Shown in pieces: positions 1-23,700 of a stretch of 64,000 nt of DNA. The stretch's first letter is position 1; the number at the start of each line of letters is the position of its first letter. A program made the position numbers and the translations under genes. The notes beneath the pieces were generated by a model. That model had not been told where the DNA came from, ran no database searches, and saw only the letters and a program-made list of their open reading frames with translations. This stretch comes from Macrostomum lignano (taxonomy: Eukaryota): positions 124,001 to 188,000 of the forward strand of contig NIVC01001769.1 in NCBI GenBank assembly GCA_002269645.1. The letters run 5' to 3'.

Positions 1-189
1 AGCTGAGTGTCTGTTGAGTGTCCAAGGGTGAGTTAAGTGAGTGTTCAAGGGTGAGTTTTGAGATGTGAATGAGTGTCCATTGTTGAGTATCCTCTACCGC
101 ATGTGGTGACACGCAACACAGAGTTTCAATGTGATCGGTCAACGGGTAGAGGGTCCGATTGCTTGGAATTTCCGAGTAGAGAGGGGAAG

Positions 190-351
190 GGATTCTATTG
201 GTCGAGCAAGCATTTGAAGTGATTTCCGAGTATAATGTGGGGAAAGAATTCTATTGGTCGAGAAGGAATTCTATTGGTCGAGTGGTCCCTGATGCACGAT
301 TTGGTTGGTCAACACAACCCGCAGGAGCCGGGGTCCAGTACCCTTTATAAA
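190..351 (+). promoter_or_regulatory. Putative Pol II promoter of the pPolB gene: three inverted CCAAT boxes plus TATA
   Basis: TTCTATTGGTCGAG repeated, with ATTGG at 197, 253 and 273. TATAAA at 346-351, about 70 bp upstream of ATG 421. Confidence 0.55.
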
Positions 352-420
352 CAAAGCACCCGGGACTCAGTAGACCCCATAGATTTTTTTATTTTATATC
401 AAATTTAACATACAACAAAA

Positions 421-1135
421 ATGCAAATAACTTGCGACTTCTGCGAGTCATCAGTAACCGGGGGCATTGAGGAGCACTATGCGGTATGCCCTGCGATACC
501 AGCACTGTTTGAGTCAGATGACTCCCCAACGATTCATTTTCAACTGATCAAGGAGGCGTTTAATGGCAGGTCCCGACTTTACCGGGCCAGTGCATGCGGC
601 GACCCGAGGAATTTTTTGGAAAGCACTCGTCAAGCTTTCATTGACTTGATCACCCAGCATCAACTTCAGCCAGGAACCGCCATCAAGGTTCAGCTGCGCC
701 TCGGGGTCCTGATGCAGCGCATCATTAATGGCCGCTGCGCCGCCGAGAACACCGCCTGGTTTGCTGCCAAGGTCCACTCTCTTATTCGGAGTGAGGAGGA
801 GCAATACTTCTCTGACGACATGCAGACTATCCTCAACCGGATAGAGAAGTACCTACGCAATGCCAGTTGCTGGGAAATCAGGACCACTCGGTGTGTTGAC
901 GTGTCGACCGCTGTTTATTATCTACCGCATGGAGCGTCGTGCAAAAGGCCAAGAATGAGTTCAAGAAAGACAACGGGCCGCTAAACAACTCCCTGTAGAC
1001 CCTAGAGAATGTTCGCAAGCAAGTGAGCTACCGACTGGTCAATTCAAAGCCTGTGGCCAAGTCAGCATTCCGCGACCAGAAGATTTTCAACCGGGATTTA
1101 GTTCTGGTGCACGTTCTCAAGATGACAAGCCAGTG
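421..1135 (+). pseudogene. Protein-primed DNA polymerase B (Polinton pPolB) remnant with large internal deletion
   Basis: ORF 421-984 resembles the Polinton PolB N-terminal region (EAFNGRSRLYR; IEKYLRNASCWEI like the GSGW motif). Frame +3 from 948 reads AKNEFKKDNGPLNNSL*TLENVRKQVSYRLVNSKPVAKSAFRDQKIFNRDLVLVH, matching pPolB motif B context ([28 protein letters not shown]...). Exonuclease domain and motifs A and C are absent. Confidence 0.8.
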
Positions 1136-1344
1136 TCGGCCAGTGCGATCTGGACACTAGCAAGCTCTTTTTCTCACAATAACATTCTTTTCACATATCT
1201 TTAATTTTTAACTATGTGCATGTGAATTTAATGCGAATATACTATATTTTGAATAATAATAAATCCATCCTTTACTTAATGATATTTGATACACTGCAGG
1301 AGAGAAAATTGTTCTTTCACATTAGTATTTTTACCATAATGAGT

Positions 1345-1665
1345 CATTTTTGTGCACATCTCTGGGTTAAAATTCTCATTGAAATGTTTGTATTTTGTAC
1401 ACGAGTATGTAAGTTTTCGTGCACAGTGATTAAAAGTGCGCAATATGACGTGACTTTTTTGACAACATGCGTCAATTTTCATGCACAGGTTCGAGTAAAA
1501 ATCCCTATTGAACAACATTTATTTTGTGCACAAGTATGCAAGTTTTCGTGCACAGTGTTAAAAAGTATGCAAAGTGTCGAGGTTTTTCGTGCACACATTC
1601 GGGTAAAAATTCCCATTGAAATGTATGTATTTTATGCAAAAATGCATGATTTTTCGTGCACAACA
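1345..1665. repeat. Three degenerate ~120-bp AT-rich tandem units
   Basis: Recurring TTTT(C)GTGCAC...GGGTAAAAATTCCCATTGAAATG...GTATGCAAGTTTTCGTGCACAG blocks near 1347, 1477 and 1583. Confidence 0.6.
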
Positions 1666-2013
1666 GAGGCTAGAAACGCTAAATCCGCAGAAATGGGTCG
1701 GGGTGGGTAGTTTTTTTTCAAGCCAGGTGTTTGGCATAAGAAAATGATAGGTACTAGAAATTTGGTAAAATGAAAAAGAAAAAGGCAATTTCCAAAATTC
1801 TGCCAGGTATTTATTTTGACTGCAGTAGACCGGGCAGCTATGGCGGCTATCAGGCATTAAAACGAGAGTTGCACAAACAGCACGGACCCAAGTTTAGTGT
1901 AGGGCAGGTATGCATATACGATATACTCCTGAACCAATGATTTTCTAGAAAATTCCAGCTTAGGCTTTTAGTTTTATCCACTAGCTAGCAATTTCCAGTT
2001 TTTACAATTAAAG

Positions 2014-2382
2014 GTAAAAACGTGGCTCCAAGACCAAGATGTCTACGCACTGCATAGAGATAAACGCAAAAACTTTCGTCGAGCACCGATTGTGGTGCGG
2101 GGCATGGATGACCAGTGGGAACTGGACCTTGTTGAAATGCTGCCGTTCGCCAAGTACAATGGCGGCATGCGATACATTTTATGCTGCATCGATGTGCTCA
2201 GCAAGATTGCCTGGGCTCAGCCGGTGCGCCGCAAGACAGCCGAGGAGGTTGCAGCCGGATTCGAAGCGATCCTAAATCGAGCTCACCCTCGATGCCCACG
2301 AGCAGTTCGGACCGACCGTGGAAAAGAGTTTTGCAACACGCAGTTCCAAGAGCTGCGTGAGTCATGGACATTCGACAAGTGA
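2014..2382 (+). pseudogene. Polinton retroviral-like (c-int) integrase, truncated fragment
   Basis: VKTWLQDQDVYALHRDKRKNFRRAPIVVRGMDDQWELDLVEM...YILCCIDVLSKIAWAQPV...RAVRTDRGKEF. The first two catalytic Asp of DDE are present; the Glu and the C-terminus are deleted. Confidence 0.88.
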
Positions 2383-2627
2383 CCGAGTTTTATCGAGGCA
2401 GTTGCTTCAAACTTCCTCATGGGCACGGATATCCCACATCGCTGCTATCTCGACTGCCCCCTGAGACTCATGAAAATGCAGTTCTCCTTTCCCGCATACC
2501 ACCTCCATCGCAGCAAAAACATAGGAAAACGCCAAAAATCAAACCAAAGAAGAGCAAGCCAGTGCCCACAAAAAAGCGCAAGATACCGTTAAAAACAGTC
2601 AACCGAGTGCTCGATTCACTCTCATAA
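2364..2627 (+). CDS. Basic Polinton core-like protein remnant preceding the capsid gene
   Basis: FYRGSCFKLPHGHG resembles the Y/FRG..QRGHG motifs of the gene that usually precedes the MCP. Lys-rich tail. Its stop overlaps the MCP ATG (TAATG). Confidence 0.45.
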   Translation: MDIRQVTEFYRGSCFKLPHGHGYPTSLLSRLPPETHENAVLLSRIPPPSQQKHRKTPKIKPKKSKPVPTKKRKIPLKTVNRVLDSLS

Positions 2628-2773
2628 TGTATCGGACAAATCCACGGCTCAACCTGTTTGAGCCAAAGACGCATGAAATTGGAGTGGATAGGTCTCACTT
2701 CATGGACTTTCATCCCATCGGCAGTCTCACGACTCCTGATGCAGCGATTGAATTCGACTGCCACGCCTCCTCT
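2627..2773 (+). pseudogene. Polinton major capsid protein (double jelly-roll) N-terminal fragment, frameshifted
   Basis: MYRTNPRLNLFEPKTHEIGVDRSH / +1 shift / FMDFHPIGSLTTPDAAIEFDCHAS, similar to the MCP start ELDLF..PTQ.SI...EYHPISSL...PIEF. Confidence 0.7.
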
Positions 2774-2775
2774 GA

Positions 2776-2988
2776 GGCGGCTAGGAGTGCAAGTATGTGA
2801 AGGATTCTCGAGACTCTGCGGCGGCTAGGAGTGCAAGTATGTGAAGGATTCTCGAGACTCTGCGGCGGCTAGGAGTGCAAGTATGTGAAGGATTATCGAG
2901 ACTCTGCGGCGGCTAGGAGTGCAAGTATTTGAAGGATTATCGAGACTCTGCGGCGGCTAGGAGTGCAAGTATGTGAAGGATTATCGAA
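2776..2988 (+). repeat. 44-bp tandem repeat (~5 copies) derived from ATPase coding sequence
   Basis: CTAGGAGTGCAAGTATGTGAAGGATT(C/A)TCGAGACTCTGCGGCGG with anchors at 2781, 2825, 2869, 2913 and 2957. The last copy is in frame with the ATPase. Confidence 0.9.
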
Positions 2989-3397
2989 TTTGGATCTGCA
3001 GCCTCATGACCTGATTGTGATTGACGATTTACTGGATTAAGCAGCTGCAAGTCGAGAGCTACGACATCTGTTCACCCGTGAGGCCCACCACAAGCCCTGC
3101 ATTGTCATTCTCATCACGCAAAATTTATTTTTCAAAGGCAAAGAGTGGCGCACAATTAGCATAAATTGCACCTACATGGTGTTGTTCAATAACCCCAGAG
3201 ACGCCTCTGCGGTCCAAGCTTTAAGTCAGCAATGCTTTCCCAAACGGCGCACTCTGCTAGTAGAACTGATGGATCGATTGGTGCGAGATGGAGATCAGCG
3301 CTATCTGCTGCTTGATTTTCACCCCGCTTCACCCCATGAACTGCGCCTGAGAGCCAATTTTCTCCCCGATGAGGCCCCGCAGCGAGTTTATCTATAA
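2942..3397 (+). pseudogene. Polinton packaging ATPase (FtsK/A32-like), C-terminal half with premature stop
   Basis: Walker B LIVIDDLLD, then TAA at 3038-3040, then HLFTREAHH...IVILITQNLFFKGKEWRTISINCTYMVLFNNPRD...YLLLDF...LRLRANFLP. Walker A is missing. Confidence 0.9.
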
Positions 3398-3427
3398 GAA
3401 TGGCTCAGTCTCTGCACTGAGTTAAAC

Positions 3428-3760
3428 ATGGATAAACACATTGCACTAATAACTGTCTTTTGTGAGGGCACTATATCCTTGCGTCGCTGCATACTTACCT
3501 ATGCAAATAAAAGCACCATTTGCTGTTTGGTCGAGTGTATTATCAACTTACTAGCAGGAAAAGTTGGCTGTGAAGATAGCTTGAAGCGGAGACTCAGGCG
3601 ATATCGAAATACTCTCCGGCTTGTTGCACAAAGCAAAAGTGTGAAAAAGGCTCGGCGCAATCTCTCACACCCGCATATCCTTCGTTGTCTTCCTCTGATT
3701 CTCACCTGTATAAAAAGACATGTACAAGGAAATGATACTGGTACCCCGGTTGCAGTATGA
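3428..3760 (+). CDS. Conserved small basic Polinton protein that follows the ATPase
   Basis: RRCILTYANKSTICCLVECIINLLAGKV...LKRRLRRYRNTLRLVA matches the recurrent Polinton family pattern (R.AIL..A...LI..LCECALN.L.GN.P....K..L..YK..LR.LA). Confidence 0.7.
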   Translation: MDKHIALITVFCEGTISLRRCILTYANKSTICCLVECIINLLAGKVGCEDSLKRRLRRYRNTLRLVAQSKSVKKARRNLSHPHILRCLPLILTCIKRHVQGNDTGTPVAV

Positions 3761-4318
3761 GGCACTTGTGAATCAGAGGGGTATGGAGACAGTCTGTGAA
3801 CCCGAGCTAGAGGCGGAAAAACAGTTGCGCAAGATTAGGGACGAGCGTTGCGTGCAGCAGCTGCAGGCAAGTGCGACCCAAGAACAGCCTCCAGTAATTC
3901 ACAAAGAACCGCAGTGGAAGGAGGTTTTATATCTGACGGTGAATCAGAAATGGCATCATCGTCTGCAGGCATTGATTAGCTTCATAACCGTAAAGTGCAA
4001 GTCGATTAGCATAGATGATACGTATGGAGTTTCTGTCAATGGTAAACCGTTGTACAACTCAAATATCGTGGACCTGCTGCATTTCATAGTTAAAGATACG
4101 TACTCTAAGTACCTTCAGCCACCGAATGGGATTAATGAGTTTTTGTTACGTGTCTTCAAGAAAACCACGTGCCTCTGTCTGCAGTTGGTCTGAACACTAC
4201 AAAATTGCTGGAAAAGCCTCGGGAAGAAAAGTCCAGTCCTAAAAAACCTCGACTGCAAGGCTATAAGAAGACTCAGTCTCAGAAAGGATACGGCAAGTGG
4301 ATCAAGTGGCCAAGATGA
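3720..4318 (+). pseudogene. Conserved Polinton accessory protein, frameshifted near 4165
   Basis: KEMILVP...GVSVNGKPLYNSNIVDLLHFIV...PPNGINEFL (family pattern G.++.G+.+PGSNI.DL...P.G...F). Continues in another frame as HVPLSAVG...QKGYGKWIKWPR*, with the stop overlapping the next ATG. Confidence 0.65.
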
Positions 4319-4388
4319 TTGTCATTGATTTTGAAGGATTTCCGCACCTCTACAAAACAGAGGACTTTGTGATTAAGAAATTGCATGG

Positions 4389-5964
4389 TGTAATGCCACT
4401 CTGGCCAGTACTAGCTTGAACATTGTATTAGCACGTACATGTCGCTACTCAACTTATGTACGTAAGGCACGCGGCTCAATTGTGCACGTTGCAATCAGAT
4501 CGCTTCCAAATATAAACATCGTCTCACCCTACTTGGAGGGTTAAGGCTTTTTCTCGCACGCCACAAACACTGCCTGACTCCCGAGTCATTACATGGACCG
4601 CTGGACCGCCTACAACCGAAGGTTTGGTGGCCCGGCATGCGAGCATCCGTAGAAGCGCACATGGCAGCCTGCATCAGCTGCCAGGCCTGCACCCGCGAGA
4701 CCGCGCCGAAATCCACGCCACTCAAGCCGACCGAACTACCGGAGGGCCCCTGGCTCGAGCTGGGGCTGGACTTCCTCGGACCAGTAAGCGGCAAGTCGCT
4801 GCTCGTCTGCACGGACCACTTCTCCAGGTTCCCGCTCGTGGAGGTCATGCCCAGCACCACCGCCTCCGCCGTCACCAAGGTGCTGCGCCGGTGGTTCAGC
4901 ATCTTCGGGCAGCCGACAAAGGTAACTACAGACAACGGCCCGCCCTTCGCATCGGCCGAGTTCAGCAGCTTCCTGGCGGACCAGGGCGCCCGGCACCATC
5001 GAATCACGCCTCTCTACCCTCAGGCCAACGGCGCAACGGAGCGGTGCAACCAGGGGCTGAACAAGGCTATTCGCGCGGGCGGTCCTCGAAGGTCGGGACT
5101 GGACGCTGGCCTTGGACGAATACCTGGCAGCGTACAGGCGCACTCCACACTGCGCCACAGGCGTCGCACCGGCTAGTCTGCTATTTGGCAGGCAAATCAA
5201 CGACGTGATCCCGAGCCTCCAACACTCGCAGCCCATCGACGCGACAAGAGCGGCCATCGCCGACCGCGACCGCCAGGCCAAAGAGGAGATGAAGCGGCTC
5301 GCCGACCAACGCTCCAGGGCAGCAGACAACGCCATCCGTCCGGGCGACCGCGTCCTGAGGCGTCTGCAATCCCGGCAGAAGACCGACGCCTTCTACGAGC
5401 CAGTGCCATGGACCGTGGCCGAGGTCCAGGGCGACTCCCTGCTCATGCAGCGCGACGAGGTCGTCTGCCGCAGGCACGCTACGCAGGTCAAGCGGCTGTC
5501 CGAGCAGCCTAAGCAGTCCGAAGGGCAGCCGCTCCAGCCGCCTGGCCCCCCTGAGCCCACGGAGCCGATCGCTGCCCGGCCGCATCCCCGGCAAGCAAAG
5601 GACCCGGAGAGGAACTACAAAGAGCCCGACCTGCGCAGAAGCTGATTGACTTGATTGATTGACTGTCTCTCAAATGGACTGCACATGCATGAACTGTTAG
5701 TCACTTTTTATGGTTCCCTTTGTGTTTTCACCGTTACTTTTAATCCACTCGAGGAGGAATGTAATGCCACTCTGGCCAGTACTAGCTTGAACATTGTATT
5801 AGCACGTACATGTCGCTACTCAACTTATGTACGTAAGGCACGCGGCTCAATTGTGCACGTTGCAATCAGATCGCTTCCAAATATAAACATCGTCTCACCC
5901 TACTTGGAGGGTTAAGGCTTTTTCTCGCACGCCACAAACACTGCTTGACTCCTGAGTCATTACA
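4389..5964 (+). mobile_element. Non-autonomous Ty3/gypsy LTR element carrying only integrase
   Basis: LTRs at 4389-4593 and 5760-5964 (205 bp each, 2 mismatches). TGTAATG...CATTACA termini. 5-bp target duplication CATGG (4384-4388 and 5965-5969). Polypurine tract GAGGAGGAA at 5751-5759. No gag, protease, RT or RNase H. Confidence 0.95.
4619..5645 (+). pseudogene. Ty3/gypsy integrase, frameshifted near 5077
   Basis: KVWWPGM...CISCQA (zinc finger end), LGLDFLGP, TTDNGPPF, YPQANGATER (complete DDE). One extra base, then AVLEGRDWTLALDEYLAAYRRTPHCATGVAPASLLFGR...RRHATQVKR. Confidence 0.92.
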
Positions 5965-6387
5965 CATGGGTTGAGTTTGCATGCGGTCAAACGACGGCTC
6001 ATTACTATTGCTACCGACCGCCGCACAGCTTTGAGCTCTTTGATCGAGGACAGCGACGAACCTGCTACTGGCTCACCAATAAGCGGCACGGTCTAGACTG
6101 GGACAGGAGTGGGTTCCGACCCTACTCTTGTCTCTGGAGCGATATCTCTCACTTGCAAGGCCCGATATTTAGCAAGGGGGATGTCAAGTGCCAGTTCCTG
6201 TCGCGTCTGCTGCTGCAGCCTGTCTACGACCTAGCACACCTGGCCTTTCCGAGTGCCTCAAAGTACGTGCTAACCTGCGCCCTGGCCAAAGTGGCGCTGT
6301 ACGCTGATTGGCTGCGGCCTCGCGGCTACGGGTCTATAAAAGTAGCGATCTGCAGCAGGCACTGGCGTTTCTCTCGATTGTCTAAAG

Positions 6388-6984
6388 ATGGTCGCAACAA
6401 TTTGCGTGACAAACATCGTGACAGGAGCCGACCTGGCGACCCGGGTGGGTCTGCCTCAACTATCGAATTTCCTGACTCTTCATCTGCCTCAGTATCACAC
6501 AATCCGCCATCGCCTGGTTCATCCTCGAACACTGGCAGTGGTGATGAAGAGCGGGCAGCATCGAGTAACCGCGCTGGTGTATCCGACCGGACAAGTGTCT
6601 GTCTGTGGAGCCAAAAGCATGGAGGAAGCTCTCGCAGAGACGGAGAATATTGCGATTGACCAGGACTTCTTGCGATTGACCAGTCTGCCCCAGATTCGCA
6701 TCAAGACTATTACCTCTGTGACGGCCTTTTTCGCGGGTCGGCATCCACTCCGGTTGGGGGAAGTCAAGTCTAAATGGCCGCATCGGGCCACCTACGAGCC
6801 GGAAATGTTTAACGGACTTGTGCTCAAGTTTAATGCCTCTGTAAAGTTGATTTTGTTTCATTCGTATCGTTGTATAATAGCTGGCGCTCGCAGCGTGGTT
6901 GAGGCTCAGACTGCAGCTGATGCCCTCTCCCGCATTTTGCATGCAGACCAAGCATCCGAACCTACTTTGCTGGACTCTGACTGA
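6388..6984 (+). CDS. Intronless TBP-fold (TATA-binding protein-like) protein carried by the Polinton
   Basis: Two TBP repeats: VTNIVTGADL...VTALVYPTGQVSVCGAKSMEEA and IKTITSV...ATYEPEMFNGLVLKF...KLILFHSYRCIIAGARSVVEAQTAADALSRIL. Open 198-aa ORF with downstream AATAAA at ~7097. Confidence 0.88.
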   Translation: MVATICVTNIVTGADLATRVGLPQLSNFLTLHLPQYHTIRHRLVHPRTLAVVMKSGQHRVTALVYPTGQVSVCGAKSMEEALAETENIAIDQDFLRLTSLPQIRIKTITSVTAFFAGRHPLRLGEVKSKWPHRATYEPEMFNGLVLKFNASVKLILFHSYRCIIAGARSVVEAQTAADALSRILHADQASEPTLLDSD

Positions 6985-7404
6985 GCTCCTCTACGGCATA
7001 ACAGTAGTAGTGAGATCTGCCTATGCACCGAGTAATAATAATAATATTTTTGCTGTAACTTTACTTCTGTATTTTTTGTGTACAAAATATAAGAAAAAAT
7101 AAACGCGAATGCGACTGTGTTTGTGCAATAATGCTTACGAAAATGAAACGTTTTTTTTTGTTTATTTTATTGGCAGGTCCATGGATTGCAAAGCATAAAA
7201 TTACATGTTAAAAGCTCGTATTAGCACAAAAAAGTTTATGAAGAATGGAAGGGCAGTATTAAGGCCCGTCGCGTGTATTTACAAAACAGTATTATCGCCA
7301 GGAATCAAAGCATGATGGGGCAATATTATGGCCAGTATTGACAAAGCAATATATACAACAGTGCATGATCAGTACTATGGTTCAAAACTATATTAAAAAA
7401 AAAG

Positions 7405-8100
7405 TTAATTGATGAAATGACCAGTTGTCGCTTCATGCATTGCGCGTCGCTTCATTGGTGGCTGGTGGAATGAAGGCTGTTGGTTCTTCTCAGCTGTTGG
7501 TGGCTCTTCCAGAGTTTCGAATGTAAATCTCTTTCTAAATTCAGCCTGAACTGCTTGGAAGGCCCCCCAGTGGTCGTCCCAATCTGCCGACTGCCTGTCA
7601 GGTACTTGCATCAGTTGGTCAAATGTAAGCTTTGCTGCCCATGCTGCACACTCTTCAGATTCCGTAGGGTGGTATCCCATCCACCATGGATCGCCGATCG
7701 GCGGCTCGACCGGAGGCTCTCGCTTGTCAATTTTGTCTAGGACCCATTGCTTTTGAGCCCAGACTTCGCGCCAAAGTTTAGTAGGAAGCGGTAAGGCATG
7801 CCTTAGGTGCACCGGCGGTCCGAGTACAGTTGGAAGGCGCCAGAGTGTGATTACGCCATTTTGCAAAACCACTTGCCTGTTGCCGCCCAGAAGGCATTGC
7901 TCGTCGATACACTTTCTTGCAAACTCTTTCAGTCGTTCCTTCAGGCTGCCCAAGTGGCAAAACTGGTGGACGGTGAGCTCCATGCCAGGCAGACCTGGTC
8001 GATACTCTTCGGCAAATTTGTACCACTTTCTGAAGCTGATGCACTTCGAGTGCGACCTGACGCCGATTCGAAATCTGTTCGATAATGTCTTGAACTCCAT
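7405..8100 (-). CDS. PC4/Sub1-like ssDNA-binding / transcription coactivator domain protein (ATG at 8100)
   Basis: MEFKTLSNRFRIGVRSHSKCISFRKWYKFAEEYRPGLPGMELTVHQFCHL aligns by eye to PC4 (IDIREYW...EMKPGRKGISLNPEQWSQL). A possible second degenerate unit starts LGGNRQVV. Minus-strand AATAAA at ~7165-7170. Confidence 0.6.
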   Translation of the reverse strand: MEFKTLSNRFRIGVRSHSKCISFRKWYKFAEEYRPGLPGMELTVHQFCHLGSLKERLKEFARKCIDEQCLLGGNRQVVLQNGVITLWRLPTVLGPPVHLRHALPLPTKLWREVWAQKQWVLDKIDKREPPVEPPIGDPWWMGYHPTESEECAAWAAKLTFDQLMQVPDRQSADWDDHWGAFQAVQAEFRKRFTFETLEEPPTAEKNQQPSFHQPPMKRRAMHEATTGHFIN

Positions 8101-8177
8101 TTTGTTCACTGTCAAAAACTGTGAGCTTTCCTTCCGGCTGTGCGCGAGATTAAATATGACTGGAATTGGTAAGTAAC

Positions 8178-8360
8178 ACCAGCTCCCGCTCCATAGCAAT
8201 AACCAATCCGAACCCCGAATCCAGCCCCACACAACAGCCCTCCCGCGGGAACTATTGGCAAATCAAGAGCCCTTCCGGGGACCACTCAGCCATTTATAAA
8301 TCAGCTCCCGTTCCATAGCAATAACCAATCTGAACCCCGAATCCAACCCCACACAACAGG
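8178..8360 (-). promoter_or_regulatory. Putative promoter of the PC4-like gene: duplicated ~58-bp CCAAT-containing unit around a TATA box
   Basis: CAGCTCCCG(C/T)TCCATAGCAATAACCAATC(C/T)GAACCCCGAATCCA at ~8180 and ~8302. TTTATAAA at ~8293-8300 lies between them. Confidence 0.45.
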
Positions 8361-8539
8361 AGGTGGCGGGACCTTCTTGCGGCCCTCTGGCCACCAAGAA
8401 GTAGCGGTCTAGGTCTAACGACCTCCCGCTGTACCCGCCACAGCAAGAAAAGAGTAGAGCCAAAGCATTGAATGCGGCTTTTGCCTTGGCTAGAGCCTTA
8501 AAAGCGGTAAGTGAGACGGGGAATAAGATTGGGGTTTAG

Positions 8540-9059
8540 AAATTAGGAGGGGGCATTGGTTTTGGATAGGGTACTGGATAGAAGGACCGTGTTATATGGG
8601 ATGGGGTGCAGGATAAGAGGGAGCCTTGGTTTGGGATGGGGTGCAGGATAGGAGCAGGCCTTGGTATGGGATGTACGGGGTGTAGAACACGAGGGGGCCT
8701 TGGTATGGGATGGGGTACAGGACAGGCAGGGCCTTGGTTTGGGAAGGGGTGCAGGATAGGAGGAGGCCTTGGTATGGGATGTACGGGGTGTAGGACACGA
8801 GGGGGCCTTGGTATGAGATGGGGTGCAGGACAGGAGGGGCCTTGGTTTGTGATGGGGTGCAGGATAGGAGGGGGCCCGGTTTGGGGGCTCGGTTTGGGTC
8901 GGGGGTGGGTGCGTGGCGGCGTTGGGTCGGGGGTGGGTGCGGCGGTGGTGGGTCTGGGGTCGGGGGTGGGCCTCTTTGGGGGGGCCTTCTCGCCTGATTG
9001 GCCGGGTGCCCCGGCCAATCCGGTGCGATGGCGGTGGAGGGTACCACTTTCCTACTACT
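8540..9059. repeat. Right terminal inverted-repeat region of the Polinton: G-rich subterminal repeats and terminal hairpin
   Basis: GCCTTGGT(A/T)TGGGA units every 33-40 bp (8624-8850), dense GGG runs, perfect stem GATTGGCCGG/CCGGCCAATC at 8996-9020, terminal CTACTACT. Confidence 0.7.
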
Positions 9060-11590
9060 GCTCTCTTGTAAGTATCTGTGCTAACACCCCCCGACTGCCG
9101 GAAATTTCCCGCGAGGCTGTTCCCGTTCATCCCCCCGGACTTCCATTAGAGCTCTGCTTGGACTCAAACGCAGGGACATCGTCGTTTCTTTGCTGTTTTG
9201 CCCGACATCGGCCCTCTTTTTTACTCAGCGGTAAAAAACACACCCGTTTTTACTCAGGACAGGCTCATCTAAGTCGGCTCAAACCCGACGCAATTACAGT
9301 CCCAAAAATTCAGCCAACTCGTCCACACTACCTCAGGATGTATACAGCGGGTGAGCGACCATCCACCTTCTGGACTCTCAAGAGGGGACGGCGCTGCGGA
9401 CACCGGCACCACCGGGTCTCCCTGCGCGACACCGCAGCACTGTAGCTGCCCAGGTATATTATATCTTTGAACTGAAAATATTTTTAATAACTGAACTGAT
9501 CTGGTTTGATAAACTTACTCACAATTATAATTGACTCACCCCATACAGAAGATCAAAGTTCGCACATAGCTACAACAGATCCTTAATTGTACACGCAATT
9601 TCAAAATAATCGAAAGCTTCCTACTTGAAGTTCTCCACTTTAAAATAACACAAATTATTATGTAATTTAACATTACTACGATTGAGATCGAGTTCACCGA
9701 ACACAATGCGTAAAAATGCGTAAAAAATCTTGTGCTTAAAATGCGTGAAATAGGATCATCTGCTGTCAGTCTTTGATCCTCATAATACGAGTATGTAATT
9801 ATTTTGTTTGGCTTAGGGCCTTGGGCAAATAAAAAAAAATCGGGAGTTACGCGTACCCAGGTAATCTTGCGGCGTATACATAGCGCGGTTTCCACTCGAT
9901 ATTTAATCCGAAAGCACAATCAGTGCAGGCGTACATGTATAGGGAGGGGGATCGGGAGATGTGTACCCCCGGCCAAAAGGTTTTTTTTGAAGTCTTTTTT
10001 CTCTTTAGGGGTGTGTCCCATCCCCCCCCCTTGAAAGAAAATTATACTCTTAATTCTGAGGGGTATATAGCCTTCCCTCAGCAAAATTGAGCAAATTCAT
10101 TTATTTAAATATTTTGCTGTGTCTCTCATGATAAGTCTAATAATCTAGCAGTATGTACCATGCTCGTAAACCTAGCTGGAGAACGTACCATATACTCAGA
10201 AGACATTGAAAATTCGCCATCACGGAGAATTCCGTATATGGTCGCCACATTGCGAGTGCAACTCAAAACTCTCTCAATCTGTGCAAGTGGCGAAACTTAG
10301 CTATATGCCGCGGCAGAGTGAACATGTACATGCAGTGTACCGTACGGTTACATGCATTATTAATTATATAGACACTTGTGGCTATACACACGTGTGACTT
10401 TTATATACCGTAACAATATCATTCCGATCACTCTGAGAGCTGCGTATTTACTTACATGTTCTAACTGAAAATAAAAATTGTTACTAATGACCAGAGCAAC
10501 TTAGAAAAACATAAAAAAATGGGATCGGACCAAGCAACTAACTACGCATTCAAGCACCCTGATGACTGACTGAACGATTCAAGTACTGTATTTTAAAGCT
10601 AGCGTGCCCTAATTGTTTAATTTTTTTACTTTTTTGTAAAAAAAACAGTTTTACGTTTTTTGTTTAAAGAATGTTACGTAGTTTGTTCTATTAATTTGTT
10701 AAACTGTACTAAATAGGTTCTAAACGATTTCTAAGAAAATGAGTTTTCCGGTCTGCACACGGCTCACAGAATTCCACTTTAGTAGTATTGCTTCAGCCTT
10801 GATCTACGTATGTGAGCATTCTTCTGTATTGCGAGTGTCAGGCTTTAGCAAATTTTATAGCTAGGCCTCGCCTCATTTTTTGGACCTTTGAACTAGGCGG
10901 TCTAAAAAACAACAGTTGTTGCAGTTTTTGTTTCTAACTCTAGTCAGTCACTAAGTTAAGTAGTAAAGTAAGTAGGGCCTACTACAGCACAGGCTACAGC
11001 CTACTACAGCCACAGGCATCTGAAAGAAATAAGTCCAGGCCAAGGACAATCAAACAGTTCTATGCCAGACACTGTCTTCTATTTTGGCCTATTTAACACA
11101 AAGTTATTAAGAATTTGTCTCCTTTGCTTGGCTTGCTATTGTTAGGTTTTGTCTTGCCCTGGGCCTAATCTTTTTATAGAAACTGGATCTTAAAAGTTAA
11201 ATAAAAATTCAAGAATGTTGCAACAAATAAACCCACAACTAAATAGAAGTTTTCGAAATAAGAAAGATGTTCTTATTGACTTTGAATCTAAGACTAAAGG
11301 TAAGTGATATCATTTTTAGTATCATTTTTCATACTAGTAACTAAATAAATTTTTTAGGACTTCTTGAACTTTAGGTATGTAAAATACTTCTGATTTTCCC
11401 ATTTTTCTAAAACTTTTGCCAGAGTCTAAGAGACTGATCCTAGTCAAATCGTCAACTGGCATTTCATCAACTGGGAAGCATTTGCCCTCAGGTCACTTTG
11501 TCAACTGGCCAATCAGTGACCTCTAAACATAGTCACTTCGACAACTGTGCATTATGTACATACTCATATTTTACAATGCATTAGTATATA

Positions 11591-14792: not shown

Positions 14793-17700
14793 AATTGCGA
14801 GTTCAATTCACTGAGCAGCTGCGCCTCATGGACACCCGACTAGAGTGGGAGAGCGCAGTCTTATTGGAGTTGAACGAATTTTACCGCCGCCGAGCCGAAA
14901 TTGAGGAGCAATATTCGAAGGATTTGAAGAAACTGTTCAGCTCTCGAGTAGAGAAACTTCACATGCTCGAGCGGCATCGTTCAGTGCCTGGTGCCAGCAG
15001 TTATTCGCTGTTTAAATTTTACAAAACAGTCCTCGGCATCACTCACAGCCAGAGTGTCAATCATGGAGTTGTGGCGAAAATTTTTAGCACCAAGATGGCG
15101 CCAAGATTCACCGATATTCGTGAGAATTCTGCTAAACTGTTTCAAAAATGCAAAGAGATGTGTATCGCCGGCCAAGATGAAGTGATGGAGAATGTCAGGC
15201 AAATTGGTCAGAGTTTGAGAACTTATCAGATTGCTTACGGACAGGCTGCTCAAGCTGAGGCCAAGCTGCTGGCGGCCAAGGATGATCGAAGACGACTGGA
15301 GGAGGCTGGCCAGTCTGGCAGTGCCAGCGGTGTGGAGAAACGGCTCAAGCAGGTTTGTGCTCAGTTGCTGGGACAATAGCCTCCCAGATCCTCAGTTGCT
15401 GGGACAATAGCCTCCCAGATTCTCAGTTGCTGGGACAATAGCCTCCCAGATCCTCAGTTGCTGGGCCACCGGCCTCCCTGATCCTCAGTTGCTGGGACAA
15501 TAGCCTCCCAGATTCTCAGTTGCTGGGACAATAGCCTCCCAGATTCTCAGTTGCTGGGACAATAGCCTCCCAGATTCTCAGTTGCTGGGACAATAGCCTC
15601 CCAGATCCTCAGTTGCTGGGACAATAGCCTCCCAGATCCTCAGTTGCTGGGCCACCGGCCTCCCAGATCCTCAGTTGCTAGGCCAGCCTCCCAGATCCTC
15701 AGTTGCTAGGCCAGCCTCCCAGATCCTCAGTTGCTAGGCCAGCCTCCCAGATCCTCAGTTGCTGGGACAATAGCCTCCCAGATCCTCAGTTGCTGGGACA
15801 ATAGCCTCCCCAGATTCTCAGTTGCTGGGACAATAGCCTCCCAGATTCTCAGTTGCTGGGACAATAGCCTCCCAGATTCTCAGTTGCTGGGACAATAGCC
15901 TCCCAGATTCTCAGTTGCTGGGACAATAGCCTCCCAGATTCTCAGTTGCTGGGACAATAGCCTCCCAGATCCTCAGTTGCTGGGACAATAGCCTCCCAGA
16001 TTCTCAGTTGCTGGGACAATAGCCTCCCAGATCCTCAGTTGCTGGGACAATAGCCTCCCAGATTCTCAGTTGCTGGGACAATAGCCTCCCAGATCCTCAG
16101 TTGCTGGGACAATAGCCTCCCAGATCCTCAGTTGCTGGGCCACCGGCCTCCCAGATTCTCAGTTGCTGGGAAAATAGCCTCCCAGATCCTCAGTTGCTGG
16201 AACAATAGCCTCCTAGATCCTCAGTTGCTGGACAATAGCCTCCCAGATCCTCAGTTGCTAGGCCAGCCTCCCAGATCCTCAGTTGCTAGGCCAGCCTCCC
16301 AGATCCTCAGTTGCTAGGCCAGCCTCCCTGAGGCTCCTTCTAATCTGCATAGAAGGAACTGAAGGATCAGGAGAGGGTATAGATAGGATCTCGGTGTTAA
16401 GCTGAGGTGCAGGGTGTGGCAATACTTTGGACTTTCTGAAGGAAGGATAGCCATATATAATTTAAATGCTAAGCGATTTACACTACTGTGAATCGCGTGT
16501 ATTTTTTTTCTGTGTGATTAAATCGTTAAATTTATCTGTTTCTTACTAATGCTTAACTGCTATCTACGAGCGACTGTATATCTGTTTTAACTCCCATTTA
16601 TCTGAAAGTTTTCTAGCAAGTAGATCTGATACAATATCATGCTCCAGGTACTCTATTTTTAACGCATACAAACTTCTGAGTAAATCTGCATGGTTGGTCA
16701 AGTTTGCCAGTAAAAAATAATTGTTGTGTAGTTAACTCTGCAGATATTTTTTTCTATTTTGATTTCCAAAAACACACTTAAATTTCCGACTTCTAAGTCT
16801 TTACTTCCGGTTTCTAAATCTTATCTTCACTTCCGGTTTCTAAATCTTATCTTCTCACTTCCGGTTTTTAAATCTTGTCTTCACTTCCGGTTTATATATT
16901 TTATTTTCAGTTTTGGTTTATGAATTGTAAATTCACTTCCGGTTTATAAATCTTATCTTCACTTCCGGTTTTTTAATCTTGTCTTCACTTCCGGTTTTTT
17001 AATCTTATCTTCTCACTTCCGGTTTTTAAATCTTGTCTTCACTTCCGGTTTATATGTTTTATTTTCAGTTTTGGTTTATGAATTGTAAATTCACTTCCGG
17101 TTTATAAATCTTATCTTCACTTCCGGTTTTTTAATCTTGTCTTCACTTCCGGTTTTTTAATCTTGTCTTCACTTCCTGTTTATTTATCTTATTGTCAGTT
17201 TTGGTTTTTGAATCGTATATTCACTTCCGGTTTATAAATCTTGTCTTCACTTCCGGTTTTTTAATCTTGTCTTCACTTCCGGTTTTTTTAATCTTGTCTT
17301 CACTTCCTGTTTATTTATCTTATCGTCAGTTTTGGTTTTTGAATCGTATATTCACTTCTGGTTTCTAAATATTATCTTCACTTCGGGTTTATATATCTAA
17401 TCTTGACTTCCGGTTTTTAAATGTTCAACTTCCGGTGCCTCCCGCAGTTGGACAAAACCGTGGAGAGGCGCCGCGAAAAGTACGACTCTACCAAGCATAA
17501 AGCATTGCGCGAACGCAATGACTACCTGCTACAGTTGGAGAGCGCCAACGCCTGCCTGCGGAAGTATTTCTCTGATGACATGCCGGACATTTTAGACTGC
17601 ATGGCCTGCGGCTTTCACAATTCCCTGGCTAGAGCCGCCATGATGCATTTGAATACGGAGGACACTATGAAGCAGAGACAGGAGAGCTTTGTGAGACTGT

Positions 17701-20700
17701 TTATGGACACCATGAGTCAGCTGGATGCCAAGTGAGTGAAAATGTTGCTATTGGTTTCATTATCATTGCTTTAACAGCAATGATAGATGATTAAAAGTAA
17801 TTGCTTTTAATCACCTTGCTAACAAAAATATTGTTACCTAAGAATCGCTCTCAAACAGGTCTAAGAATCGCTCTCAAACAGGTCTAAGAATCGCTCTCAA
17901 ACAGGTCTAAGAATCGCCCTCAAACAGGTCTAAGAATCGCCCTCAAACAGGTCTAAGAATCACCCTCAAACAGGTCTAAGTATCGCCCTCAAACAGGTCT
18001 AAGAATCACCCTCAAACAGGTCTAAGAATCACCCTCAAACAGGTCTAAGAATCGCCCTCAAACAGGTCCAAGTATCGCCCTCAAACAGGTCTAAGAATCA
18101 CCCTCAAACAGGTCTAAGTATCGTCCTCAAACAGGTCTAAGAATCACCCTCAAACAGGTCTAAGTATCGCCCTCAAACAGGTCTAAGAATCGCCCTCAAA
18201 CAGGTCTAAGAATCACCCTCAAACAGGTCTAAGAATCGCCCTCAAACAGGTCTAAGTATCGTCCTCAAACAGGTCTAAGAATCACCCTCAAACAGGTCTA
18301 AGTATCGCCCTCAAACAGGTCTAAGAATCGCCCTCAAACAGGTCTAAGAATCACCCTCAAACAGGTCTAAGAATCGCCCTGAAAAGTTATTTAACAGACA
18401 TATTTTAGTAAGCCTTGGTGGACTGATACAAAACTGTTGTTATCTGTTGTTAATTCAAAAATATATAAATTATTTTCAGCAAGCGTATTATGTTATTTTG
18501 AAGTCTTCTGGGCAAGTGGAACTATCTTATACTTTTCTTATCCTTAGAAATACTGGATCAGCATGTTATCACATATCAGCAGTATTTTTAGCATTCTTTT
18601 TGACGCCCTTAATTCGTATCTAGCAAGATTTCGTTAGTCAGTTATAAGTTTCTCTTGTTTCATTTTATACGTTATACATTAAAAAACCTTTTCCAATTAG
18701 TTCAGTATGCTAGGAATTTTTTTTCTTCATCATTATATGCTTTTTATTATGTATGCAGTACTTGACTTTATTTTTTAAAGAATTGAATTATAATTACTCG
18801 TACATTTATGTCTATGTACATGAGGGACTGAGATGCTAGTCTAAATGTATGTGCGTTAGCAGATGGGGTGGTAGTCTATGTACATTGGGGAGTGAGGTGG
18901 TAGTCTATGCTCATTGGAGAGTGAGGTGGTAGTCTATGTACATTGGGGAGTGAGGTGGTAGTCTATACTCATTGGAGAGTGAGGTGGTAGTCTATACATT
19001 GGAGAGTGAGGTGGTAGTCTATACTCATTGGAGAGTGAGGTGGTAGTCTATACATTGGAGAGTGAGGTGGTAGTCTATGTACATTGGGGAGTGAGGTGGT
19101 AGTCTATGTACATTGGGGAGTTAGGTGGCAGTCTATAAATTAAGGAATGAGGTGGTAGTCTGTGTACATTGGGGAGTGAGGTGGTAGTCTATGTACATTG
19201 GGAAGAGAGGTGGCAGTCTATGTACATTGGGGAGTGAGGTGGTCGTCTATGTACAAATCGACGCACGTATGTAATGTATGCAGTAACAGTCTGACTGTTT
19301 AAGATGCCGTTTATCTACTTAATCTCAACAGGCAAGACAAGCTGCACTTCTTGCAAACATCGCAGTTAGCATTCACCGAGCCTAAGGCGTTAAAATTCGT
19401 AGCGCACAAAGGCGATCCAATAAATCAGGTTTGCGCAAATCAGTCTGACGTGCTTAACGAACTGGAGAGTCGTTACAACAATTTGCAAACACTTATTAAA
19501 AACACCGGCCTTGAGTCTGACGAACTGTGGAAGACTCTGGAAGCTGCTGAACAGTCCTGGCTGTCTGAAATCAGCGTCTCTGACTATTACGTGAACGAGA
19601 TGTTCTGTCAGGCTATGAAAGAATCGCAGTCTGGCATCTCTGGTGAGTCTTGCGGTTACTTCTTGCCCACATAGACTACCACCTCACTCCCCATTGTACA
19701 TAGACTACCACCTCACTCCCTAATGTACATAGACTACCACCTCACTCCCCAATGTACATAGACTACCACCTCACTCTCTAATGTACATAGACTACCACCT
19801 CACTCCCCAATGTACATAGACTACCACCTCACTCTCCAATGTATAGACTACCACCTCACTCTCCAATGAGCATAGACTACCACCTCACTCTCTAATGTAC
19901 ATAGACTACCACCTCACTCCCCAATGTACATAGACTACCACCTCACTCCCCATGTACATAAACTACCACGTCACTCCTCAATGTACATAGACTACCACCT
20001 CACTCCCCATGTACATAGACCACCACCTCACTCCCCTTGTGCATAGACTAACACGTCACTCCCAAAGTACAATCGCTTCTTATTTATCGCAAAACCCCAG
20101 GTGACTTTGCCGCGGATTCAAGTCAACAGCCGGAGCAGCGCAACGCGGACACTGACAAGAAGCGAGCCTGGGAGAATGGCGAATTCTACCTGGGCAAATT
20201 TGCCGAATACATGCGCAAGAACTGCCAGCTGACTCGCTCTCGAGCCAGAGCTGCCGCCATCTCCAGAGCACTCGGTAGGGAGAGCGGCATGGCGCCGCCC
20301 CCGCTGCCAACTAAGCCTCGAAAGAAGTCCATCATCAAAGTTAACGCCCAGCTCATTGGCAGCGGGAAGCCGAAATTATTTGGCGGTTCGGTTGACGATC
20401 TGCAAGAATTTCCCACTATTGTGCTGTCCTGCGTCAAGCTTATTCATCAGTATGGGCTGCACAATCAGGGAGTGTTCAGGTAGAGTTTTTCCTGTTTTTT
20501 CACTCTAATCTTCCCCTGTTTGTCTTGCTTTGGGATAAATATCCCAATTCTCAGTCAGCTCACTAATCTCTCAATATATTAAGTATCTAATTTGGGATAA
20601 ATATCCCAACTCTCAATCGGATTGCTAAACTCCCAGTTACATAGTGTCTCTAATTCGGGATAAAAATCCCTATCTCACTCTGCCACCTCCCTGAATCCAG

Positions 20701-23700
20701 AATCCCTGGCTCCCAGTCGGAGGTCAACCGACTCAAAGAAGCATTCGAACGTGGCGAAGATCCGTTTGCCAACGCAACAGACGGCCGAGACGTGAATGCG
20801 GCAGCTGGTGTGCTCAAATTCTACCTGCGGGGCCTGGAGGAGCCTGTGCTGCCATCCAGGCTATTTGACGATATGTTGGAATGCACCAAGAAAGACTCAA
20901 TTGCAGATACTATTGTTAGACTGAGGGAGATTTTCCAGCAGCTCAGTCCGAATGTTTATCGAGTGCTCAGGTGATTTTTTGGATGGTCTTGTTTGTCTAA
21001 CAGCAGGAAATAAATCGTTTGGCAATAGTAGATAAATGTCACGTCAGGTTAAATAAATGCTGTCAGAAATATCAAGTAGGAGTCAGATTCGGTTGAGGTG
21101 AGAGTCAGGTGAGGTTGATGTGAGAGTCTGGTGAGGTTGAGGTGAGAGTCAGGTGAGGTTAAGTTGAGAGTCAGGTGAGGTTAAGTTGAGAGTCAGGTGA
21201 GGTTGAGATGAGAGTCAGGTGATGTTAAGATGAGAGTCAGGTGAGAGTCAGGTGAGATTGAGGTGAGATTCAGGTGAGATTGAGGTGAGAATCAGGTGAT
21301 GTTGATGTGAGAATCAGGTGAGGTTAAGGTGAGAGTCAGGTGAGGTTAAGTTGAGAGTCAGGTGAGGTTGAGATGAGTGTCAGGTGAGATTGAGGTGAGA
21401 GTCAGGTGAGATTGAGTGAGGTGAGAGCAGGTGAGATTGAGGTGAGAGTTAGCTGTTGGAAAGTCGAGCGAGAGTCGATTTAAGTTGATGGTCGACACTT
21501 AATATTAACTTCTAAAATTAGGTTTAGGATTAAATTAAGGTTAAGATGATTGCGACAAAAAATCCAACAATTTCACTTTCAGATTCCTATTTGCCTTCCT
21601 GAACCACCTGTCCTCATTTTCGGACGAGAATCTCATGGACTCGTACAATCTGTCAATCTGTTTAGCTCCGTCCTTCATGCCGGTGCCTCAGGGCCGCGAT
21701 CCTGTAGTGTTTCAAAGCTCGCTATCGCACCTGATGAAGCTAATTATCGAGCACGAGTCCGAGATTTTCAATAGGAAGGACGTGTCCGGCCCAGTGTATC
21801 ACAAGATGATGGACGATGACTTTGAGAATGAGGACGAGGAAGACCAATCGCTGTCTTCGGAGATTGGTGAGCGCTTGAATTGTAGTTGAATAACGATTAC
21901 CTGTGAGAGTCAGGTAGGATTACCGGTGAGAGTCAGGTGGGATTACCTGTGAGAGTCAGGTGGGATTACCTGTGAGAGTCAGGTGGGATTACCGGTGAAA
22001 GTCAGGTGGGATTACCGGTGAGAGTCCAATGAGATTACCGGTGAGAGTCCGGTGAGATTACCGGTGAGAGTCAGGTGGGATTACCGGTGAGAGTCAGGTG
22101 GGATTACCGGTGAAAGTCAGGTGGGATTACCGGTGAAAGTCAGGTGAGATTACCGGTGAAAGTCAGGTGGGATTACCGGTGAAAGTCAGGTGAGATTACC
22201 GGTGGGAGTCAGGTGAGATTACCGGTGAGAGTCAGGTAGGATTACCGGTGAGAGTCCGGTGGGATTACCGGTGAGAGTCCAATGAGATTACCGGTGAGAG
22301 TCCGGTGAGATTACCGGTGAGAGTCAGGTGGGATTACCGGTGAGAGTCAGGTGGGATTACCGGTGAAAGTCAGGTGGGATTACCGGTGAAAGTCAGGTGA
22401 GATTACCGGTGAAAGTCAGGTGGGATTACCGGTGAAAGTCAGGTGAGATTACCGGTGGGAGTCAGGTGAGATTACCGGTGAGAGTCAGGTAGGATTACCG
22501 GTGAGAGTCCGGTGGGATTACCGGTGAGAGTCCAATGAGATTACCGGTGAGAGTCCGGTGAGATTACCGGTGAGAGTCAGGTGGGATTACCGGTGAGAGT
22601 CAGGTGGGATTACCGGTGAAAGTCAGGTGGGATTACCGGTGAAAGTCAGGTGAGATTACCGGTGAAAGTCAGGTGGGATTACCGGTGAAAGTCAGGTGAG
22701 ATTACCGGTGAGAGTCGGGTAGGATTACCGGTGAGAGTCAGGTAGAATTACCGGTGAGAGTCCGGCGAGATTACCGGTGAGAGTCAGGTGGGATTACCGG
22801 TAAGAGTCAGGTAGGATTACCGGTGAGAGTCAGGTGGGATTACCTGTTAAAGTCAGGTTGGATTACCTGTGAGAGTCAGGTGGGATTACCAGTGAGAGTC
22901 CGTTGAGAGTCAGGTGGGATTACCGGTAAGAGTCAGGTAGGATTACCGGTGAGAGTCAGGTTGGATTACCTGTGAGAGTCAGGTTGGATTACCTGTGAGA
23001 GTCAGGTAGGATTACCGGTGAGAGTCAGGTGAGATTACCGGTGAGAGTCAGGTGGGATTACCGGTGAGAGTCAGGTGGGATTACCGGTAAGAGTCAGGTG
23101 GGATTACCGGTGGGAGTCAGGTAGGATTACCGGTGAGAGTCAGGTAAGATTACCTGTGAGAGTCAGGTGGGAAAACCGGTGAGAGTCACGTGGGGTTACT
23201 GGTGAAAGTCAGGTAGGATTACCGGTGAGAGTCAGGTAGGATTATCGGTGAGAGTCAGGTAGGATTACCGGTGAGAGTCAGGTGGGATTATCGGTGAGAG
23301 TCAGGTAGGATTACCGGTGAGAGTCCGGTGGGATTACCGGTGAGAGTCAAGTGGGATTACCGGTGAGAGTCAGGTAGGATTACCGGTGAGAGTCCGGTGG
23401 GATTACCGGTGAGAGTCAAGTGGGATTACCGGTGACAGTCAAGGTGACATTACCTGAGAGCTACTAGATGTATGAGCGAGTTTATCCAATTAGCTAAATT
23501 TCCAAAACGGTGCTACAATGCTTCACACACCGCAGACCTGTCCGAGTGCAACTACATGGTCACCGCCAAGTATTCGTTCCAAGCTCGAACGCCACGGGAG
23601 TTGAGCTTCTCCAGAGGCGACGTGCTCACCATACTGAGCCGGATCACCTCCGAGTGGCTGCACGGCTGCAACTCAGCTGGCAAAGAGGGCTACCTGCCCG

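Follow-up and report, generated by a model that had tools for sequence, protein, structure and literature searches.

Polintons carry no RNA polymerase, and how the expression of their capsid and packaging genes is controlled is the question raised by a locus of the flatworm Macrostomum lignano. No transcription programme for animal Polintons was found in the literature covered. The window considered here (64,000 nucleotides of contig NIVC01001769.1) contains a Polinton copy, belonging to what is called here family A, in which an open frame without intron (6388..6984, forward strand) encodes a 198-aa protein with two lobes, similar to the TATA-binding protein (TBP). The fold and residues of this protein, its recurrence in the genome, its relatives, and a box found ahead of the element genes are described below, together with the mechanism that they suggest.

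Fold and Residues of the TBP-Like Protein

The Pfam family TBP (PF00352) matches the ORF in two stretches with an E value of 1.3e-19 (70.2 bits, cut-off 22.9), and all 35 PDB sequences matched by the 198-aa protein are TBP chains or TBP fusions. An AlphaFold2 model, calculated from a 42-row alignment with canonical TBPs among its rows, reached a pLDDT of 87.7 and superimposes on human TBP with a Z of 19.0 and an rmsd of 2.6 Å over 176 residues (VIA-align). Against human, yeast and archaeal TBP the Z values range from 15 to 19, the next unrelated fold scoring 8.3. The saddle of two TBP repeats, typical of the superfamily, is present in the ORF, and Pfam, PDB sequences and the structural model all agree with the first-pass annotation of this DNA, which had recognized both repeats from the letters alone. 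Cellular TBPs of the PDB match the model at 19–25% identity and viral TBPs of BFVD at no more than 18%, the structural comparison with BFVD returning distant viral TBPs only; the closest ESM Atlas clusters are mostly viral TBP clusters.

In yeast numbering, the YEPEMF motif of the C-terminal repeat retains E186, E188 and F190, and F207 is also kept, as had been claimed for the motif and both phenylalanines of this repeat. N69 is retained, F116 is replaced by Tyr65, and N159 aligns to Thr107, the threonine suspected at the second conserved asparagine. Leu and Tyr had also been proposed at the Phe positions of the N-terminal repeat: the tyrosine is borne out by Tyr65, whereas Leu49 never falls at F99. 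This last position is occupied by Thr48 according to phmmer and one hhalign run, and by Pro46 (or its family-B equivalent) according to two other hhalign runs and one MAFFT alignment; a Phe is absent from it whatever the alignment register. Of the four intercalating phenylalanines of canonical TBP (99, 116, 190 and 207) only F190 and F207 remain, and the N69/N159 pair is broken, N69 being kept in families A and B and N159 being Thr or Ser in all 18 element TBPs aligned (six from family C, five from A, seven from B).

The same 18 rows have Y116, P117, S/T122, T/S159 and T/S161 in common. Judging from TBP-TATA structures, four of these five shared changes are on the DNA-facing saddle, and three of the shared saddle changes replace Val or Asn by Ser or Thr. 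E/D186 (Asp in family C), E188, F190 and F207 are retained in 18 of 18, the acidic TFIIB stirrup of canonical TBP (E186/E188) being present throughout. Helix H2 of the window protein shows an in-frame local rearrangement near residues 88–95, common to this copy and the C1978 copy only among the 30 loci read. Like cellular TBP and TRF2/TBPL1, the element proteins possess the fold, N69, V71, T112 and L114 (A and B), a YEPE-type stirrup, F190 and F207; unlike them, in families A and B they have lost F99 and carry F116Y, N159T, V161T, V122S/T, T124C, V203K and P191N/S. They also lack an N-terminal extension, and are multicopy and mobile.

The Polinton Copy in the Window

Comparison with copies C460 and C114 identifies the element of the window (1..9059, forward strand) as an internally deleted Polinton, with its left end outside the window, 534 bp upstream of it (L031:7467). 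Its right terminal inverted repeat (8810..9059) is 70–82% alike to the left one and ends in CTACTACT (9052-9059), which pairs with the left end AGTAGTAG. Such AGT-type inverted ends, typical of Polintons/Mavericks, are found in this copy and in C460. A 6-bp target-site duplication is present at C460, and a matching one is absent at the ends of the window copy. The flanking hexamers at its two ends are different (window 9052-9065, L031:7461-7474); since they differ and the repeats are only 70–82% alike, the copy may be a recombinant of two insertions.

The genes lie on the forward strand except for the last one. A TTTATAAAC box at about 345 precedes a remnant of the N-terminus of the protein-primed DNA polymerase, pPolB (421..984; 49% identity to the N-terminal region of the C114 pPolB, E 5e-49), and a CATAAGAA box (1735..1742), found at the same site in C114, precedes an integrase remnant (2104..2382; Pfam rve, E 3.3e-11), which a deletion has joined to the end of the region of the putative minor capsid. 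The ORF remnant at 2627..2777, which has a longer frame in C460 and no Pfam match, is presumably the N-terminus of the major capsid gene. A 44-bp tandem array (2770..2989) sits at the deletion junction and is followed by the C-terminal remnant of a packaging-ATPase-like gene (2990..3395), whose family-B counterpart resembles Pox_A32 weakly (E 0.011). A TATAAGAA box (3393..3400) is located 35 nt ahead of the first of two conserved element ORFs (3428-3760 and 3720-4193; together 3428..4193), which have no Pfam family above cut-off and which may resemble adintovirus accessory genes. A second TATAAGAA box (4262..4269), identical in all 21 family-A loci with an anchor match (30 scanned), lies 53 nt ahead of an ORF (4315..6400) without Pfam match, presumably a DEDD-type exonuclease judging from its motif, which is found immediately 5' of TBP in all A and B copies read. 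Next comes the TBP gene, its start codon 53 nt behind a canonical TATAAAAG box (6335..6342) kept in 25 of the 26 family-A loci with a flanking-anchor match (30 scanned). A PC4/p15-like ORF on the reverse strand (7405..8100), convergent with TBP, matches Pfam PC4 under cut-off (E 0.016), its family-B counterpart above it (E 4.8e-7). Gene labels other than TBP, rve, pPolB, PC4, dUTPase and deoxynucleoside kinase (dNK) are our assumption from the usual Polinton gene content.

Deletions relative to C460 and C114 have removed most of the polymerase from the window copy, together with about 1.4 kb from the integrase and putative minor-capsid part and about 1.75 kb from the part with putative major capsid, protease and ATPase. 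The copy has gained, within the exonuclease-like ORF, a short LTR retroelement (4389..5964, forward strand) with 205-bp LTRs 99% alike and a 5-bp target duplication (CATGG). This 1.6-kb, non-autonomous passenger, with an rve fragment as its sole coding content, was not seen in the 29 other family-A loci; since its LTRs are nearly identical, it was inserted recently. The Polinton copy is itself non-autonomous and could at most provide TBP in trans.

Subterminal repeat arrays are found at 183-290, 1328-1662, 8180-8359 and 8544-8990, with units of about 108–129 bp, a 58-bp pair, 34/74-bp units, and CCAAT-like ATTGG boxes upstream of the pPolB remnant; they are possibly enhancer-like. Host exons with FCH and SH3 domains, which we take to be srGAP-like, adjoin the element (14828-24386), an LHFPL-like host gene lies near it (28661-29212), and long simple tandem arrays (14-, 22- and ~31-bp units, some inverted) occupy 26500-27200 and about 31000-63000. 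The database protein P0005 (1196 aa), in which element pieces including most of TBP are fused to ABC-transporter-like sequence, looks like an artefact of gene prediction.

Polinton Families, Gene Order and Selection

The window gene is not a one-off: at least 151 genome matches to its protein were found (150 of 192 candidates scored). Among the 150 matches listed, 45 are 70–100% identical and constitute family A, pieces of broken copies being counted separately; 16 of them are full length without stops. The other 105 are 36–44% identical and belong nearly all to family B. The TBPs of A and B are 31–36% identical, with open frames in both, and differ in the charge of helix H2, most of whose basic charge is gone in family A.

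The order of genes in the family-B copy C1297 is PC4-like, integrase-chromo, putative minor capsid, basic ORF, putative major capsid, protease, ATPase, two ORFs, exonuclease-like and TBP, and then pPolB on the opposite strand; the last (PF03175, E 3.6e-7) and rve (E 2.1e-12) are both recognized, as in Polintons. Peptidase_C5 (E 0.003) and Pox_A32 are matched by family-B ORFs under cut-off, and the capsids have no Pfam match. Four A copies have pPolB matches upstream. The central block from integrase to TBP is common to A and B, its orientation being flipped relative to the terminal pPolB and PC4-like genes (window 421-8100 versus L034/L035).

All of the 29 other family-A loci fetched have the same Polinton flanks as the window. 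For family B, after removal of 15 A rows and 4 second pieces, 131 TBP rows were analysed for context, and at least 99 of them have a capsid or polymerase match at the corresponding position; the true number may be higher, as scores were obtained for 124 of 405 and 86 of 1119 candidates only. Conversely, of 75 B-type capsid rows and 82 B-type polymerase rows, 62 and 73, respectively, have a TBP match where one is expected. In families A and B the TBP-like gene is close to fixation, and the earlier reading of a divergent, element-encoded TBP stands, with an altered saddle, the TFIIB stirrup kept, and Polinton flanks.

The dN/dS ratio is 0.27 in 18 B copies (pooled pN/pS 0.36, 95% interval 0.29–0.44) and 0.51 in 13 A copies (0.52, 0.29–0.90), in sets picked for intact frames and from pairs that are not independent. 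The element TBP is under purifying selection, and is real and recurrent. In family B, the N-lobe half of the gene has diverged much less than the C-lobe half, synonymous sites included (dS 0.30 versus 1.6; L034, L036-L055), which suggests recombination within the TBP gene and exchange of the polymerase-side module.

A third family, C, carries a much more diverged TBP-like gene in the Polinton C4619 (L112:2315-2932; HMM E 4e-8; hhalign 93.6% versus alignment A2), with 67 genome matches. Its protein has no Pfam match and no PDB sequence match; the structural model (pLDDT 89.9) reaches a Z of 16.6 to TBP, and ESM Atlas gives 0.95 to TBP clusters. Genes of this kind have probably been missed in standard annotation, since they lack any Pfam match. 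Directly in front of several family-C TBP frames (L117, L119-L130) is a site resembling a splice acceptor, a hint that they have a short first exon, and the neighbours of the C4619 gene encode deoxynucleoside kinase and dUTPase. Family C had been considered as a TBP-less control and was dropped for carrying this gene; the pPolB locus C558 was dropped as too degraded. Family D was used instead (C2506; L113:4228 to L114:9307), AT-rich and bounded by inverted ends, in which no TBP match was found. Three of its 14 genes have TATAAA no more than 7 nt from the start codon, an arrangement that recalls poxvirus-type late promoters. Family D is perhaps helper-dependent.

Origin and Relatives

The window ORF is 28% identical to host TBP. 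Host TBP loci (C713, C1301, C70), whose TBP core is intronless, and TRF2-like loci (C3090, C350, C3513) are separate from the elements. In trees that took 36 and 33 of 143 plus 5 rows and in which long branches meet, A, B and five relatives form one branch (support 97/88, and 99/98 in the second set), and a clade of element TBP with host TBP is rejected (AU p 0.030). A single retrocopy grouping with host TBP, which would have undone the first reading, is at odds with this result and with the copy number, and the phylogeny proposed as a check places A and B apart from host TBP. In three trees with long branches the element TBPs do not group with host TRF2 either, a tentative placement, and family C is not placed with A and B.

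Three divergent TBPs (P0099, P0043 and P0130) branch beside A and B with support of 85/89-92, and are possibly TBPs of other Polintons or viruses. Relatives at 48–58% identity occur in assemblies, and the profile search returned only Macrostomum-labelled and Logan/JGI proteins (8 of 2800 candidates). A metagenome scan gave 46 loci at 20–39% identity, none with a match to six family-B core proteins; two IMG/VR scans gave no relatives, only two spurious antisense phage frames.

A Candidate Promoter Box

Many genes of A, B and C elements are preceded by a sense-strand 8-bp box, YWTAAGAA in A and B and TATAAGCA-like in C. In the B copy C1297, YWTAAGA occurs 10 times in sense and never in antisense (shuffles 2.5 ± 1.6, maximum 10), seven of the ten at -20 to -160 of a start and ahead of 7 of 11 genes; the p value is circular here, because the motif was chosen by eye on this copy. 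In C130, a B copy of a subfamily orthologous to C1297 and not independent of it, 8 sense and 2 antisense sites were counted, all 8 sense sites within the same interval (8 of 11 genes, p 5e-5). In the A copy C114, 7 sense and no antisense sites were found, four of them in the windows ahead of starts (p 0.012), or five when the downstream ATPase start is included (p 0.001).

YWTAAGA has one site in family C, none at a gene start. A TAAGC variant, recognized post hoc on C4619 (16 sense, 3 antisense; 7 in windows; 6 of 9 genes; p 0.003), was then fixed before the test on C4072 (window from -15), where it gave 10 sense and 4 antisense sites, with 7 of 10 in windows and 6 of 6 genes (p 8e-4). TAAG is followed by A at 25 of 28 sites in A/B and by C at 16 of 21 sites in C. 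Information is highest over the TAAG core together with two bases on either side of it, equal to 8 bp, some upstream positions in A/B also being biased, and the box occurs in all three codon phases of the preceding gene. Host DNA at 9.1–30 kb of the window contains 3 plus 5 sites. The box is absent in the TBP-less family D, where TAAG is found 4 times in the windows versus 6.3 expected (3 of 14 genes); this family is the only negative control, is AT-rich and may live differently.

The window copy has its boxes at 1735, 3393 and 4262, its TBP gene standing behind the canonical one at 6335. The family-B TBP gene is itself behind CTTAAGAA in 20 of 21 stretches. Aligned to TATAAAAG, the boxes carry G as their sixth base, and those of B additionally C1 and T2, so that CTTAAGAA deviates from the consensus at three positions; TATAAGAA and TATAAGCA deviate by one or two bases only, and some sites are plain TATATAAG, readable by host TBP. 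Departures from the consensus at T3-A6 were the most damaging changes in a yeast system of purified components (PMC2396422). Protease and 'Gas' genes are mostly without a box, three sites lying 100–150 nt upstream; canonical TATA boxes precede the PC4-like genes, and TATA[AT]A[AT] is enriched at starts in one of three blocks. A scheme in which early genes have canonical TATA and late genes all have CTTAAG was considered and holds only in part, the B TBP being behind a variant box.

From its position and sequence, we infer that the box is a candidate core promoter of element genes. Half-site DNA specificity, which the first-pass annotation had offered beside altered specificity, is disfavoured, because the conservation around TAAG spans 8 bp, the full TBP footprint. 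The pairing of a sense-strand 8-bp box with an element TBP is new here.

TFIIB and the Host Machinery

A predicted, DNA-free model of element TBP with host TFIIB scored 0.40, versus 0.00 for the best of three controls; the runs agree in at least 91% of contacts, and the partner pLDDT is at least 69. Of the benchmark pairs, 51 of 78 solved and 2 of 108 mismatched ones attained the mark for a complex, and scores of 0.60 or under comprised only 5 solved pairs and all 4 passing mismatches. Since TBP-TFIIB is a solved pair, the score may reflect likeness, and the model lends weak support to TFIIB docking by the element TBP.

Among 17 plus 6 element ORFs scanned, no element-encoded TFIIB of recognizable form was seen, nor was a viral polymerase gene for RNA in the elements read. 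PF00382 matches 15 times in the genome, on 7 contigs; the two of these loci that were read are intron-split host TFIIB- and BRF-like genes, and a host TFIIB exon is 100% identical to a UniRef entry carrying the label Macrostomum lignano. Of 20 data sets with the ORF, none is listed as RNA and 14 are presumed to be so. Contigs of four presumed-RNA runs cover the ORF at depth 3–14; they cover its flanks too, and for this reason are no evidence either way on expression.

Proposed Mechanism and Alternatives

With a rough probability of 0.6, the element TBP is an initiation factor of altered specificity, by which host TFIIB and Pol II are recruited to element promoters. It would bind, in the minor groove, an 8-bp variant of TATA whose sixth base is G and which is present ahead of many core element genes in the two forms given above; its acidic stirrup, being kept, would dock host TFIIB and through it host RNA polymerase II, which would be brought in this way to promoters poorly read by host TBP. 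In family A, host TBP could start an early-to-late cascade, because the TBP gene is behind a canonical TATA box. The variant box ahead of the family-B TBP is a misfit with a simple early-TBP cascade, and the sharing of one box by A and B, despite TBPs only 31–36% identical and unlike in the charge of helix H2, counts against this explanation, as do the near-consensus boxes of A and C and the separate placement of family C in the tree.

The first-pass annotation had named a private initiation factor and a TFIIB decoy as options; the candidate promoter box favours the former and makes the decoy less attractive. As a decoy or repressor, the element TBP would titrate host TFIIB/BRF or occupy promoters, damping host or own transcription, and host TBP/TFIID would read the boxes weakly. 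The stirrup is indeed the best-kept surface, F99, N159, V161, T124, P191 (A, B) and V203 being changed, the A and C boxes are near-canonical, and family A is without most of the basic charge of H2. A decoy would need no invariant new saddle residues common to three families, the B box is off consensus at three positions, and three families possess box and TBP together and a fourth has neither, which leaves this alternative unlikely.

Baculovirus late promoters use a TAAG-type initiator. By analogy, TAAG could serve here as the initiator at which a co-infecting large DNA virus starts transcription with its own RNA polymerase, TBP having a separate job; the invariant core located 25–60 nt ahead of most start codons would suit this, and helper dependence is known for other Polinton-like viruses. 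Such an initiator is improbable in view of the family-specific flanks limited to 8 bp and of the canonical TATA boxes ahead of PC4-like genes, and what look like splice acceptors ahead of the TBP frames of family C point to transcription by nuclear Pol II. Equally improbable is a role outside transcription, in which the TBP fold bends DNA in replication, integration or packaging: the gene adjoins the exonuclease-like gene and the PC4-like or polymerase gene, but the boxes follow gene starts and not element ends, and the acidic stirrup is without known use beyond adaptor binding. The reading as neutral cargo, a hitchhiking retrocopy of host TBP or TRF2, is largely refuted: the A and B genes are intronless like the host TBP core and recent A copies are only modestly constrained (upper bound 0.90), but against it stand the 28% identity to host TBP with the AU result, the dN/dS of 0.27 in B, frames open across families at 31–36% identity, and the relatives at 48–58% identity in assemblies.

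Relation to Known Systems

The best reading of the initiation-factor proposal is by analogy with the TBP mimics of beta- and gammaherpesviruses, in whose manner the element TBP and its box would work. KSHV ORF24 (10.1101/2025.08.25.672222) is described as having a polar-rich saddle and as acting with host Pol II at a non-canonical TATTWAA box of late genes; it is large and multi-domain, binds Pol II directly, needs five more viral factors, and keeps the four Phe while missing the acidic TFIIB residues. Common to both systems would be a viral TBP-like protein, a polar saddle and a non-canonical box, with use of host Pol II. The element TBP, unlike ORF24/BcRF1/UL87, is a bare core of 190–200 aa with the stirrup kept, and is not a member of that group.

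The TBPs of nucleocytoplasmic large DNA viruses share the two lobes with the element TBPs, and an eroded N-lobe regulatory surface with family A; as described for these viruses (PMC7221094), E186/E188 are TFIIB contacts that vary in giant-virus TBPs, which usually pair with a viral TFIIB, whereas the element TBPs have the stirrup kept and no TFIIB seen. With Polintons/Mavericks/adintoviruses the elements share AGT-type inverted ends, the 6-bp target duplication of C460, pPolB, rve integrase, and protease-, ATPase- and capsid-like genes, TBP not being a described core gene (PMC8502044).

Whether Polinton TBP genes had already been catalogued has a divided answer. In the legend of Fig. 5 of PMC8502044, within a part on non-animal data sets, a TBP-like gene is mentioned for at least one MELD virus whose PolB is adintovirus-like, and preprint 10.1101/697771 has the same wording; a description of TBP recurring among Polinton genes, or of a TBP-box pairing, was not found in the literature covered, and figures, preprint supplements, Repbase and subscription papers may already list Polinton TBP genes. 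The word promoter is absent from the main text of PMC8502044, and TBP/TATA from one of its supplements as well as from the main texts of 10.64898/2026.06.19.733378, 10.64898/2026.10.13.758929, PMC11161782, 10.1101/2023.08.22.554363, PMC11131425 and PMC8097293. Coral Polintons have been reported with VLTF3 (PMC11131425).

Implications for Polinton Biology

The element TBP appears to be a viral TBP-like late factor in minimal form, carried by an animal virus-like transposon with a candidate family-specific promoter code. At slightly less than even odds, animal Polintons widely run an orthogonal core-promoter code, in which each family has a minimal TBP co-evolved with its own TATA variant and uses host TFIIB and Pol II. 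If true, this code would represent the smallest viral switch to late transcription known so far, made of one 190-aa protein with neither a viral polymerase nor a viral TFIIB; it would account for integrated Polintons staying quiet until triggered, and would supply natural pairs of altered-specificity TBP and promoter. TBPs that change F116, V122, N159 and V161 with the stirrup kept offer a natural test of which saddle residues set TATA specificity. A dedicated TBP with an 8-bp box is directly testable in a laboratory flatworm, and the three families predict a matrix of cross-specificity.
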